Source: Eledone cirrhosa (taxonomy: Eukaryota). From it: a stretch of 64,000 nt of DNA. Positions 11,531 to 52,145 of the stretch are shown one piece after another. The stretch spans positions 26,288,001 through 26,352,000 of the forward strand of contig OZ024744.1 in the NCBI GenBank assembly GCA_964016885.1, in the 5' to 3' direction. Numbering within the stretch: the stretch's first letter is position 1; each line of letters starts with the position of its first letter. The translations under genes were made by a program, and so were the position numbers. Under the pieces are notes generated by a model. That model saw only the letters and a program-made list of their open reading frames with translations. It made no database searches and was not told where the DNA came from.

Positions 11531-11649
11531 ATTTGTGGATCATAGACTCAACTGTGTCACATCACCCTATATACATTGGTATTTGTAATTTACACAATAT
11601 ATATATAAAATATATTAATAAATGGAAACTATATTTATAAAACCATATT

Positions 11650-11715
11650 TATTTTATTATACATATTTCAAGGGCAACCAAGGCACATTATGGTGCGCTT
11701 TCATCAGATAAAATA
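11650..11715 (-). ncRNA. Type I hammerhead ribozyme, family A
   Basis: Minus strand: TATTTTAT CTGATGA AAGCGCACCA..TGGTTGCCCTT GAAA TATGTA TA ATAAAATA. Confidence 0.8.
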
Positions 11716-11922
11716 CAGATTTGTTCCACAAATAAATATTGACATACCCGGAAAAAAAGACAACCTTAACGGTTGGAGCTTCCTGGATAGTGGAGATAGT
11801 ACATTTATTGAGGGTGATACAAAATTATGAGTGAGTATGCAAATGAGTGTCCGAAAGGTTAGAAGATAATTTTGTTGTCTTTTTTTCCGGGTATGTCAAT
11901 ATTTATTTATAAAACAAATCTG

Positions 11923-11988
11923 TATTTTATCTGATGAAAGCGCACCATAATTTGTCTTGGTTGCCCTTGAAATATGTATAATAAAATA
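11923..11988 (+). ncRNA. Type I hammerhead ribozyme, family A
   Basis: Stem I TATTTTAT/ATAAAATA, CTGATGA, stem II, GAAA, near-palindromic stem III ATATGTAT; predicted cleavage after 11980. Confidence 0.8.
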
Positions 11989-12465
11989 AATATGGTTTTA
12001 TAAATATAGTTTCCATTTACTAATATATTGTATATTTCTCCACTAAACTGTTGAGTGCTTTATATCAGTATGAAAAATATTAAATTAAATATAACCTCTG
12101 CATATATATATATATATATATATATATATATATATATATAAATCAGGAAAGAAGGTTGACATGGTTTGCTATGAAAACGCCTTGTTGAGTCAAACCAAGT
12201 CAAGTCAAACCAAGCCAAGCGTAATATCATCTACTACCTGGAATACCATAACTGGACTTTACCTAAGTGGACTGCATTTAACTATTATTTGTTACCCCGT
12301 ATATATATATATATATATATATATATTATATTATATATATATATTATATATATATATTATATATATATTATACACACACACAGGCACACGCGCACACTAT
12401 CCAAAAGTAACGGTTGCATTTTGTAAGGGTATGTCAATATTTATTTATAAAACCGGTATATATTG

Positions 12466-12530
12466 TATTTTTTCTGATGAAAGCATACCATAATTTAACA
12501 TGGTATCCTTGAAATATGTATAATAAAATA
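12466..12530 (+). ncRNA. Type I hammerhead ribozyme, family A
   Basis: CTGATGA AAG C ATACCA..TGGTAT C CTT GAAA TATGTA TA ATAAAATA; compensatory stem II changes relative to the other copies. Confidence 0.8.
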
Positions 12531-12962
12531 GATATGGTTTTATAAATATAGTTTCCATTTGTTAATATCGTATATATATATTATATATATTTTATATATA
12601 TATATATTATATATATATATATATATATATATACATATACATATACACATATATATATATGTGTGTGTGTATGTGTGTATGTGTGTGTATGTGTGAGAGT
12701 GTGATAATTTCCTTCGAATGAAACAGTTCTAGTCCTATATTAAATTTTGTTGCATATAATCTACTAATGCATTGAGTACATTACTTACTGTGGTTACCAC
12801 TGATTGAACCAGGGACTCACACGTATATATATATATATATATATATATATATATATATATATATATATCTTCAAGCAAACAACATCACTCTGTTATTTAC
12901 ATATATATATATATATATATATATATATATATATATATATATATATATATATATATAAAATC

Positions 12963-13280
12963 AAATAATTAAGTCAAATATGTAAAATTTGGCTTCGTTT
13001 ATTACAAATTATAGATATACTGCTATATATATTTCGGTGACAGCTATCATTGGCTGTGACTTCTTCAGGCAGTCCGAATTGGTGTGGGAAAGACAGGTAC
13101 ACATGCTGTTGAAGTGTTTTACTCCGTCAATAGATCGATATGTCCAGCTCCTGGTTGGGTTTTTATTTCTCTGATTCCAGTTCCTCAGAGAAATGATGGC
13201 TGTCACCGAAATATATATAGCAGTATATCTATAATTTATAATAAACGAAGCCAAATTTTACATACTTGACTTAATTATTT
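12963..13280. repeat. Inverted-repeat cassette, HHR family B
   Basis: 12963-13048 versus 13193-13280; (TA)n immediately to the left. Confidence 0.9.
13019..13073 (-). ncRNA. Type I hammerhead ribozyme, family B
   Basis: Minus strand: ACTGC CTGAAGA AGT C ACAGC..GCTGT C ACC GAAA TATATA TA GCAGT. Confidence 0.78.
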
Positions 13281-13463
13281 TACATTACTGCGGAGTAACC
13301 AAACCAACCTGCGTACTTCGTCGAGTGCTCCAATCTGCATACTAGGTGTCGGTAAACAACCAGCATATACTCAATATATATATATATATATATATATATA
13401 TTAGAAAGTGAGCTTTTTTTTTACAAATTGAAAAATAACCGAGGTGTCCTACACGAGTGAAAG

Positions 13464-13781
13464 TATAAAGAAAAAGAGATGAAATCGAAAATGCAACTGG
13501 AGTCTTATTTATTTTAAAAATATATATATTTATTTGGTTCCTTTACCGGTTTCTCAGTTCTTCTGCTTTTCAAAAAAGGAGTTGAGATGGAGGGTCTGTG
13601 GTTTTTCTCACAGATGTGAGAAAAACCACAGATGTGAGAAAAACCACAGACCCTCCATCTCAACTCTACTTTTGAAAAGCAGAAGAACTGAGAAACCGGT
13701 AAAGGAACCAAATAAATATATATATTAAAAAAAAAAATAAGACTCCAGTTGCATTTTCGATTTCATCTCTTTTTCTTTATA
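13464..13781. repeat. Near-perfect ~320-bp palindrome between (TA)n tracts
   Basis: Arms are reverse complementary with few mismatches; 18-bp duplication (ATGTGAGAAAAACCACAG) at the centre. Confidence 0.92.
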
Positions 13782-48960: not shown

Positions 48961-49830
48961 AATATATATATATATATATATATATATATATATATATATA
49001 TATATATATATATATATATATATATATATATAAGTATTGAAGTTCCCGTTAAAAATTGAAAAAGTCATAGGAGTGAAGAGTGCTCTATGTAAGTTACAGA
49101 GCTAAATTTAATGTATATATATATATATATATATATATATGGAAAAGAGTCAGAACCCCGACGGCAAAACTCAAGCCGTTTCGACAGCTATTTCTGGACT
49201 CAGTCCTATTACTCACTCTACTACCCAATGTATCAAGTACTCTGGTCCCTTACCACACTTCCTTCGTTTTATATATATATTATATATATATATATATATA
49301 TATATATATATATATATATATATATATATATATATATATATATATATATATATGTATATATATATATATATATATATATATATATATATATATATATATA
49401 TATATATATATATATATATATATATATATATATATATATATATATATATATATATATATATATATATGTATATATATATATATATGTATATATATATATA
49501 TATATATATATATATATATATATATATATATATATATGTATATATATATATATATATATATATATATATATATATATATATATATGTATATATATATATA
49601 TATATATATATATATATATATATATATATATATATATGTATATATATATATATATATATATATATATATATATATATATATATATATATACACATATATA
49701 TATATGTGTGTGTGTATATATATATGTGTATATATATATGTATATATATATATATATATGTATATATAAATATATATATATATATACATATATATATATA
49801 TATATATATATATATATATATATATATGTG
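48961..49830. repeat. Long (TA)n tracts with a family H insertion at 49140-49270
   Basis: Direct inspection. Confidence 0.95.
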
Positions 49831-49859
49831 TGTGTGTGTGGGGGGGGGGGGGTTATACA

Positions 49860-50770
49860 TGAACGTGTATATTTCTCTTTCTCTTAATTTCGGGTACATT
49901 TTTGACCAGCCACCCTCCTGGTGGCAAGGTTGTAAAAGAAAAGAAATGTTTATCTCTTGAATTGCAAGAATGTTTTGCAAATTTTGAAGGTGTCAGCTAT
50001 CGCACCCATGTGTAGTCTATGAATTAGGGAACTGCGCTCTTTGTCCAGTAATACTGAGAAGCTTGCTTACATCCATCTGACTTAGTTCTTGCAATGACCA
50101 GTTCAGCAGGCCAAATGTTGGCGTTAGAATTGGCACAGCATAAGTATTGGGGGCAATGTATTTGTTGTACGCTGACAGTTCTGATGACCATATTTTCTTT
50201 AATCACCGGAGATATTCAGTTCTTGTTCTTTCCTTATTTATGGGTCCATCATATCTAACATTCTCATACTGTCCAAGATATCTGTAGTTGTCACGTGTAT
50301 GTAGAGGTTGTATTGTCAAGCCGTTCATCTCTAGATTTCCAGAGGAGGGCACAACCCTTCCATGTTTTACTGTCAAATATGCACATTTGGACTCACCAAA
50401 TTTCATTCTGATGTCTGTAGAAAATTGTGTAATGAGGTCCAATTGTTTTTTGATATAGTTGGTATTTGTCACATACAACTTCAGGTCAACAACAAAAAGA
50501 TGGGAAATACTTCTGGACCCACTTCCATGACCACTTTGTTTTGTGTGCAGGTATGATAGTGGGTTTAGTGAGAGGACGAAGAGCAGCACTGATAAGTCAT
50601 CACCCTGAAAGATGCCTTTCTGGTAGTGTATTGTATCAGTCTTAATTTCTTCCTTCTCACCATTAAGGATCAAATTGGTGTACCAGTTCTTGGTCAGGCC
50701 TTCAACAGCAGCTACTAGTGGTTGTAGGACTTTGACTAACTGTAAAGCCTTAATAATCCACCCATGAGGT
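49860..50770 (-). mobile_element. R4/Dong-like fragments (RT 50203-50770; 3' end 49860-50045)
   Basis: [30 protein letters not shown]; 3' end matches 8345-8520. Confidence 0.85.
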
Positions 50771-51271
50771 ACACATGTATGTATGTAGGTATATATATAT
50801 AAATGTGTGTGTGTGTGTGTGTGTGTATATACATACACAAACACACATACATGTATATATATATAAATATAAATATACATAAATATATATATATATATAT
50901 ATATATATATATATATATATATATATATATATATATATATATATATATATATATATATATATGCATATATAAATATTCAAACATTTACACACACATACAT
51001 AACTCCATGCAAGCGTACAATATATATGTATATACATATATGCACATTGATACATAAGTTGTTGGTAGTGAAGGAGACTCATTCAGACGTCACTTTCATA
51101 CATGTATTGAGTGCCTTATTGCATACATACTTACATTCATATACACACACAAATACATATATCCACCCATACATCCTTTCATCTATACATACATTAATAC
51201 ATAGTTACATATTTATATCAAAAATATCTATATCTATATATTAGTCTTGAGATTTTTTATTATTACTAGTG

Positions 51272-51455
51272 AATTGGCAGTATCGGTAAAGGGTTGGACG
51301 CCATGCTTTCTAGCACAGTTACGTCTCTTTACAGTCTGAGTTCAAATCCCACCGAGGTTAACTTTACCTTTCATCCTTACGGGGTCGATAAAATAAATTA
51401 CCAGTAATGTACTGGTTAATTTGCTGGCCTTGTGCCTAAAGTAGAAATAATTATT
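51272..51455 (+). mobile_element. SINE family 1
   Basis: Full copy with boxes A and B. Confidence 0.9.
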
Positions 51456-51525
51456 ACTATATATATATATAGTAATAATAATAAAATTGAAGACTACAAT
51501 CCAAAGAGGGCTCGATAAGGAGCAA

Positions 51526-51643
51526 ATATTTATTAAAATAACAGATTAAAGTTTAAGCAAAGAATCGCTGATTTCACCCTTAACGTTAAGGGTGAAATCA
51601 GCGATTCTTTGCTTAAACTTTAATCTGTTATTTTAATAAATAT
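51526..51643. repeat. Perfect 118-bp palindrome
   Basis: Centre CCCTTAAC|GTTAAGGG at 51584/51585. Confidence 0.93.
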
Positions 51644-51736
51644 ATATATATATATGTATATATATATACATATATATATATATATATATATATATATATG
51701 TAGAAGTTATATTTAATTTGTTGGGATACAACAAGC

Positions 51737-52145
51737 AAATATTTTTATAACTGTTATAAAGCACTCAACAAAATTTTTGGAGTAAAAATACAATATATTA
51801 ACAAATGGAAACTATATTTAAAAAAGCATATTTATTTCATTATACATATTTCAAGGACACCAAAGCAAATTATGGTGCGCTTTCATCAGATAAAATATAA
51901 TATAGATCAGTTTTATAAACAAATATTGACATACCCTTAAAAGAATGCGACCATGCCTGTAGGGAGCTTTCAACAGACATGGTCGCATTCTTTTAAGGGT
52001 ATGTCAATATTTGTTTATAAAACTGATCTATATTATATTTTATGTGATGAAAGCGAACCATAATTTGCTTTGGTGTCCTTGAAATATGTATAATGAAATA
52101 AATATGGTTTTATGTATATAGTTTCCCTTTGTTAATATATTGTAT
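51737..52145. repeat. Inverted-repeat cassette, HHR family A
   Basis: 51790-51960 versus 51973-52145; HHR at 51833-51897 (-, intact core) and 52036-52100 (+, CTGATGA>GTGATGA). Confidence 0.92.

Follow-up and report, generated by a model that had tools for sequence, protein, structure and literature searches.

Penelope-like elements (PLEs) of the Hydra clade are recognized, among other features, by a C-terminal endonuclease (EN) and by the motifs CxCX5C, DKT and RWK; according to Craig et al. (2021, PMC8557442), they also bear a hammerhead in their pseudo-long terminal repeats (pLTRs), occupy (TA)n and occur with an inverted 5'-truncated copy and a tail at one end only. All of these traits are found again in palindromic cassettes, and in longer copies related to them, in the genome of Eledone cirrhosa, which we studied starting from a stretch of 64,000 nucleotides (assembly GCA_964016885.1, contig OZ024744.1, positions 26,288,001 to 26,352,000, forward strand), hereafter called the window. 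In these cassettes two arms stand head-to-head, and we report that one arm nearly always ends at a fixed 3' site, S, and the other at a second fixed site, T, beyond a tail. Tails measure 65-164 nt here against 30-40 nt in the Hydra-clade PLEs of that paper, and the unit of one of our families, D, measures 3.39 kb against generally <3 kb; a count of S/T pairing and a 5' hot spot are given here and are absent from the part of the paper available to us. Its supplement includes a cephalopod family of this clade.

Other described systems share part of this picture. The Penelope pLTRs of Adineta vaga form head-to-head repeats with palindromes at the junction and a tail on one inverted pLTR, and a pLTR is described there as sufficient in cis (Arkhipova et al. 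2013, PMC3846280). That report invokes self-priming on an antisense template, whereas the present data favour two complementary DNAs (cDNAs), and the open reading frame (ORF) is entirely lost in most of our cassettes, unlike in the Adineta vaga copies. The minimal hammerheads of PLEs are similar to ours in the U3-A8 core variant and the palindromic helix III; in Schistosoma, dual motifs lie about 100-700 bp apart on opposite strands, and a single minimal motif gave no cleavage (Cervera and de la Pena 2014, PMC4209133). Polarity and arm ends, which we analysed, do not figure in the portion of that paper open to us. With the Poseidon element of Anolis, a PLE of another clade, both target strands are cut and extended in vitro, reverse transcription starts at two sites flanking the tail, and the hammerhead is dispensable; inverted products and the pairing of the start sites within one insertion are not addressed in its accessible text (Frangieh et al. 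2024, PMC11167929). Finally, metazoan non-LTR retrozymes resemble our family C in being ORF-less tandem repeats with one type I hammerhead per unit, and PLEs have been proposed as their movers (PMC7229834; bioRxiv 10.64898/2026.07.22.740005). The family C unit of 484 bp is slightly above the 150-450 bp given in these two sources, and its link to PLEs is the insertion signature itself, whereas those sources draw on co-occurrence and sequence trees. Earlier papers already describe pLTRs placed head-to-head, tails on one side only and hammerhead pairs on opposite strands; the S/T rule, the sharp 5' hot spots and a retrozyme with a Penelope insertion signature are new here. In our literature search, outside which most subscription papers lay, older Penelope reviews included, neither a count of how S and T pair nor a retrozyme bearing the insertion signature of a PLE came to light.

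Families behind the cassettes

The original prediction had named five TA-flanked palindromes from four sequence families, with their 5' ends joined at the centre and only half a hammerhead in the right arm of cassette 2. All of this is present, with the cassettes roughly where they had been placed, arms 94-100% complementary and TA runs outside. The extents and the number had to be revised: one arm of each of these five cassettes bears an additional tail of 93-164 nt that had been omitted (to 12101 in cassette 1, to 13372 in cassette 2, from 17153 in cassette 3, to 19992 in cassette 4 and from 51700 in cassette 5), so that they are asymmetric and longer than first stated, and two palindromes had been overlooked, namely cassette 6 (13402-13781) and the short cassette 7 (51473-51643). 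The first five represent families A (with its subfamily A2), B, C and D; cassette 6 adds family E. Searches of the 3.0-Gb assembly returned 777 (A), 549 (B), 2214 (C), 2050 (D) and 184 (E) first-look candidates, and for each family 40 candidates were scored and the loci of the 30 best-scoring were fetched.

Judged by their motifs, three of the four first-named families can be assigned to the pLTRs of PLEs of Hydra-clade type. Family D is the pLTR of a pLTR-ORF-pLTR unit (L122, 3.39 kb) in which RWK, DKT, a reverse transcriptase (RT) core and, ahead of the EN, a CxCX5C linker are found. Families A and A2 flank truncated RT-EN ORFs on both ends, with the upstream pLTR inverted (L005 with L121; L216), and family B lies at least 1.2 kb behind an EN with CxCX5C, within a 5-kb head-to-head palindrome (L033 with L124). 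An RT followed by a C-terminal GIY-YIG EN is read from the motifs YRDD/FLDV and then Y[IV]G.T in L005, L122 and L216, and the EN only in L124; the CxCX5C linker was seen in all four, DKT in L122 and L216, and RWK in L122 only, while CxxCxxE and CxH were tentatively read by eye in long copies. The five family ORF pieces had no match in Pfam and none in the PDB, and have 15 homologues at 35-47%; it is from the motifs that we propose Hydra-clade membership for A, A2, B and D. A tRNA-like short interspersed element (SINE) is inserted near the pLTR S site in L005+L121, L019, L028 and L035. Next to the matches in L032, L063, L083, L090, L109 and L123 lie additional PLE families whose ORFs are of CxCX5C type or related to it, and many Hydra-like families of this genome nest in one another's TA flanks.

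Family C is an ORF-less 484-bp unit in tandem with one type I hammerhead per unit (L087 is a dimer, and several arms exceed one unit). Its longest ATG frame has 47 amino acids on either strand, ORF-linked copies were found at 0 of 27 loci, and the monomer folds better than shuffled sequences (z -2.8). By these sequence features it is classed as a non-LTR retrozyme. Because its arms pass the cleavage site and exceed one unit, the template would have been uncut, multimeric or circular. Miniature inverted-repeat transposable elements (MITEs) or fold-back DNA transposons were also considered for the cassettes and rejected, as the two ends differ (S and T) and the centres vary per locus.

The S/T end rule and the proposed joining of two cDNAs

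Two fixed 3' ends, S and T, recur in every family, with T lying beyond S by 93 nt in A, 94 nt in B, 112 nt in C, 164 nt in D and 65 nt in E. The tail between them is the sequence that comes next after the pLTR in the full unit (L122, L087). For families A-D, 120 loci were read, and 113 were kept after removal of seven that repeated an insertion already counted. The polarity proved non-random, as had been proposed: a head-to-head partner lay within 130 bp at 69 of the 113 loci, and a tail-to-tail neighbour across a TA run at two; 44 loci had no such head-to-head partner, some of them having one further off beyond an ORF. Moreover, all eight close opposite-strand pairs of A2 among the first 100 of 1824 matches were head-to-head.

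Both arms ended at S or T in 57 of the 69 pairs of families A-D, and these comprised 52 S-T, three T-T (two of which continue into the ORF) and two S-S pairs. The held-out families gave the same pairing in 16/16 (E) and 7/7 (A2) cases, one and three internal-fragment loci respectively being set aside, and so did 13 of 13 B loci sharing one centre (hand count, three set aside). Pooled, 88 of 93 head-to-head pairs are S-T (p 6e-21 against 0.5). A partial tail was scored as T, and the pool includes cassette 6 and four other cassettes of the window; all six larger cassettes of the window follow the rule. Family C does so in 15 of 17 head-to-head loci. TA was reached within 40 nt by 41 of 44 focal S arms. 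The T arm lay entirely within the tail in 9 of the 52 S-T pairs, so it is not a copy of the S arm; the arm reaching further toward the 5' end was S in 31 pairs and T in 15, and in 6 they were equal. The same layout is found at 3.5-5 kb with ORFs inside, and the short cassettes are continuous with long ORF-bearing insertion copies.

It is likely, in our view, that a cassette is a single insertion of a PLE pLTR, or in cassette 3 of a retrozyme, produced by joined opposite-strand cDNAs primed at S and T. The PLE enzyme would nick both strands of a (TA)n repeat, and one cDNA would be started from S and a second from the end of the tail, T. Microhomology would then allow their 3' ends to be joined, in some cases once 20-110 nt had been copied by fold-back. 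The actor might be an RT-EN dimer, as predicted for another PLE (PMC11167929). Exact S-T head-to-head cassettes would result because one start site is used per strand of the nicked repeat and the cDNA 3' ends are joined. We infer the two-cDNA step, while family identity, fixed ends, S/T pairing, TA flanks and variable centres are read directly from the loci. The Penelope-like origin, the (TA)n target and the priming from both sides proposed originally are supported; the symmetry of that priming is not, since 88 of the 93 pairs combine one arm stopping at S with one stopping at T.

In L1 twin priming, the second target strand primes a second cDNA, which gives an inversion, at random internal sites and with little duplication. 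The cassettes are alike in the inversion, but their second start is at a fixed site and the pLTR is duplicated. Among the long copies of D there are some, such as L100 and L116, that resemble simple twin priming. In L014 (1667-1768), about 100 nt between the arms resemble captured coding sequence, apparently histone H3-like; this insert suggests that synthesis switched to a host RNA as template while the ends were being joined.

The S/T rule bears on the origin of the inverted pLTRs and one-sided tails of PLEs, where it argues against pure self-priming, and from it follows a sharply defined expectation for the in vitro PLE system already in use. The signature of family C, a putative retrozyme, would show directly, at the genomic level, that animal retrozymes are inserted by a PLE enzyme.

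5' hot spots, centre junctions and rival explanations

The 5' ends of the arms are also clustered. In family A, 23 of 44 arms stop no more than 8 nt from -182; in family B, 21 of 43 stop equally close to -230. The modes lie at or next to the A of CCA, at 8 or 10 nt in 15 of 26 anchors of A, at 9-10 nt in 16 of 31 of B and at 15-23 nt in 36 of 44 of E. The hot spot is probably a promoter start inside the pLTR. The cassettes would be short because many templates likely begin at this fixed pLTR-internal point; the travelling unit would then be an ORF-less RNA of 240-330 nt, and the hot spots suggest SINE-like pLTR-only RNAs.

Recurrence of identical centres at unlinked loci had been put forward as the mark of a propagating family. 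Most centres are one-off: the junctions of cassettes 1 and 3 occur once each in the genome, and only one 4-nt junction class was repeated among the 52 S-T pairs. The junction of cassette 5 was not seen among 24 loci read. Recurrence does exist on self-complementary words, in B at about 260 loci, in D at four, and in E and A2 at several. The centre of cassette 4, a perfect hairpin with a 1-nt centre, was found at four loci exactly and at one more with a mismatch, and the four D loci are 87-91% identical between loci with near-identical arms within each locus. Among the pieces listed, no short-read contig on cassette 4 bridges its centre, and no clear empty site was found, the flanks being themselves repeats. 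The recurrent B centre (261 forward and 251 reverse matches), which is perfect and is not that of cassette 2, sits at the self-complementary 5' hot spot and is found across subfamilies. Among 16 of its loci, six have two full arms, six have 20-46 nt at the centre and then a jump, one restarts at the hot spot and three have the short piece only; these loci belong to at least two subfamilies, 8.5% apart, and show no side-specific variants. Within the first 100 matches listed, no B centre had another nearby. Repeated formation at the hot spot fits this centre better than descent from one palindrome. A start there gives a self-complementary 5' end, from which an identical centre would be formed repeatedly. 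The idea of a mobile class of its own was not borne out, given the single-copy junctions of cassettes 1 and 3 and the same layout in ORF-bearing copies of 3.5-5 kb. The cassettes are real and abundant, and they are the ordinary short end of PLE insertion products, largely a known by-product.

Several observations weigh against the joining of two cDNAs. Evidence for one RNA behind both arms is mixed, as subfamily alleles are shared in 9/9 cases in C, 6/12 in B and 0/21 in A. Divergence within loci does not differ from that between loci in A (2.5 vs 2.6%) and B (2.9 vs 3.7%, p 0.18) and is lower only in C and D; in perfect palindromes it is 0.5% (six pairs), which may reflect later arm-to-arm conversion. 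Five of the 57 pairs are S-S or T-T, and at 12 more head-to-head loci the partner is an internal fragment. The samples consist of best-scoring copies and are not random. The hot spot is less sharp in A2, where 0-13 nt takes in 22 of 32 arms, and no sharp one is seen in D and C, whose samples are biased to long copies; TA microhomology also draws junctions to the hot spot. The presence of one perfect B centre at some 260 loci counts on the same side.

Self-priming, an idea from the Adineta vaga work (PMC3846280), set there on an antisense template, would have a strand fold back on a palindrome close to where the pLTR begins at its 5' end; copying would turn it into a hairpin, which staggered EN cuts at S and T would resolve and insert. 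It would account for recurrent centres on natural self-complementary words (B, D, E, A2), for the 7 of 16 same-centre B loci in which a short centre piece is followed by a jump or restart and the 3 of 16 with only such a piece, and for variants common to both arms of perfect palindromes. We nevertheless judge it unlikely, since nine T arms consist of tail-only sequence absent from the S arm and since either arm may be the longer one (31 vs 15), which simple fold-back of one target-primed cDNA does not give. With Poseidon, in vitro target-primed synthesis also proceeds from both start sites (PMC11167929). Fold-back probably explains the fillers and not the second arm.

That the palindrome itself is mobile seems very improbable. 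In B and E, whose pLTR RNA would start with a self-complementary word, the perfect-centre cassettes would then serve as templates in their turn, transcribed into hairpin RNAs that the Hydra enzyme puts back into the genome, and B alone would hold about 260 copies of this class. One centre at some 260 unlinked loci and the exact cassette-4 centre at four would follow from it, and arms that stop 20-110 nt past the centre could be incomplete copies of a hairpin template. Opposed to this are the single-copy junctions of cassettes 1 and 3, with one 4-nt class repeating among 52; the origin of same-centre loci from different subfamilies (B 8.5% apart; D 87-91%) with no side-specific variants; the halt of about half of the A and B arms at the hot spot, with no read-through; and the lack of neighbouring centres among the first 100 matches listed. 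It keeps its small share of probability because arm-to-arm conversion could hide descent from one palindrome. Fold-back chimeras of long-read libraries or assembly errors are scarcely credible: the perfect hairpin of cassette 4 has a centre of 1 nt that none of the short-read contigs listed bridges, but such artefacts would not pair an S end with a T end 88 times in 93, give the same centre at 260 loci, or carry differing TA flanks, fillers and arm-specific deletions.

Hammerheads, individual cassettes and neighbouring elements

Type I hammerheads with a palindromic stem III are present in families A-E, as called by descriptor scans and by eye; a relaxed scan missed those of B, D and E. Rfam returned no hammerhead among 144 matches at E<=1, and only microRNA hairpins below the gathering score. 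Repeat annotation may likewise misfile such cassettes as MITEs or microRNA precursors. Cores are intact in five of the ten arms of the five first-named cassettes (both arms of 1 and 3 and the left arm of 5). A hammerhead on each strand, as originally proposed, holds for cassettes 1 and 3, with both cores intact, and fails in the other three, which have a broken core. In family D the norm is U3.A8 (TTGAGAA in 21 of 28 copies among the rows listed), and nearly all D contigs aligned to cassette 4 have T at position 19740. In the minimum-energy fold of either strand, the hammerhead region is predicted to pair with the opposite arm in all five cassettes (the plus strand of cassette 2 has none to score).

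Relative to S, the cleavage site lies at -50 (A), -61 (B) and -76 (C). No end at this site was found among the A or B partner arms examined; two family C arms stop near -78. Because no A or B arm ends at the cleavage site and the core is predicted to pair with the opposite arm on a read-through transcript, the hammerheads would be passengers of the insertion. A viroid-like RNA with active ribozymes in both polarities, part of the original prediction, is not supported: both cores are intact in two of five cassettes, every core is paired in the predicted fold, and stem III would need a second copy on the same strand. If transcribed, thousands of such hairpins could be double-stranded RNA substrates.

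In cassette 1 (family A), the left arm (11610-11869, minus strand) ends at S with no tail, its 5' end lying about -262 from S, and bears a type I hammerhead at 11651-11714 (minus) with an intact core and palindromic stem III; the right arm (11874-12101, plus) has the tail, ends at T, has its 5' end at about -156 and bears an intact-core type I hammerhead at 11924-11987 (plus), both hammerheads being calls of the descriptor scans. A solo, older A-like arm (84%) at 12390-12570 (plus) ends at S in TA and faces the opposite way from cassette 1's left arm. Cassette 2 (family B) has a left arm at 12963-13174 (minus) that ends at S, with a hammerhead at about 13019-13073 whose core is intact and whose stem II has a closing-pair mismatch; its tailed right arm (13172-13372, plus) ends at T and consists of 23 nt from the 5' hot spot followed by a jump from -204 to -88, which deletes half the hammerhead. 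Diverged B-like subfamilies are represented by solo hammerheads at 18073-18129 (minus) and 63412-63470 (plus), whose cores are intact.

Cassette 6 (family E) follows, with a left arm at 13402-13626 (minus) bearing a 65-nt tail and a U3.A8-type hammerhead at about 13539-13578, and a right arm at 13627-13777 (plus) that ends at S and has a hammerhead at about 13668-13706, both read by eye. The arms of cassette 3, built from the tandem putative retrozyme (family C), are a left one at 17153-17710 (minus), longer than one monomer and ending at T, with an intact hammerhead at 17336-17418, and a right one at 17706-17982 (plus), ending at S, with an intact hammerhead at 17830-17912. In cassette 4 (family D pLTR) the left arm (19437-19627, minus) ends at S and has a C3.A8 core mismatch and a 15-nt deletion; the right arm (19628-19992, plus) has a 164-nt tail and the C3.A8 mismatch at 19740. 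Cassette 5 (A2) comprises a tailed left arm at 51700-51965 (minus) with an intact hammerhead at 51834-51896, and a right arm at 51966-52146 (plus) ending at S with the core change C3G at 52044. Cassette 7, with no strand assigned, is a perfect palindrome (51526-51643) with a one-sided extension to the left, and its arms are too short for a hammerhead.

An imperfect palindrome of 112 nt (82%) at 15961-16072 is without TA flanks. Pieces of another TA-associated repeat, also frequent in the fetched loci, lie at 16480-16525, 17020-17085 and 52150-52290, and a GAAA...GUC stretch in it may represent a further hammerhead family. The remnant of another Penelope-like ORF is seen at 60757-62205 (minus), with a weak GIY-YIG match (PF01541, E 3e-4) below the cut-off. 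Two copies of an element resembling long interspersed elements occupy 21900-26200 and 28240-33300 (plus), one with frames of 530 and 1155 amino acids, and a satellite of about 11 kb with a 25-bp unit and a strong G skew extends over 34052-44988.

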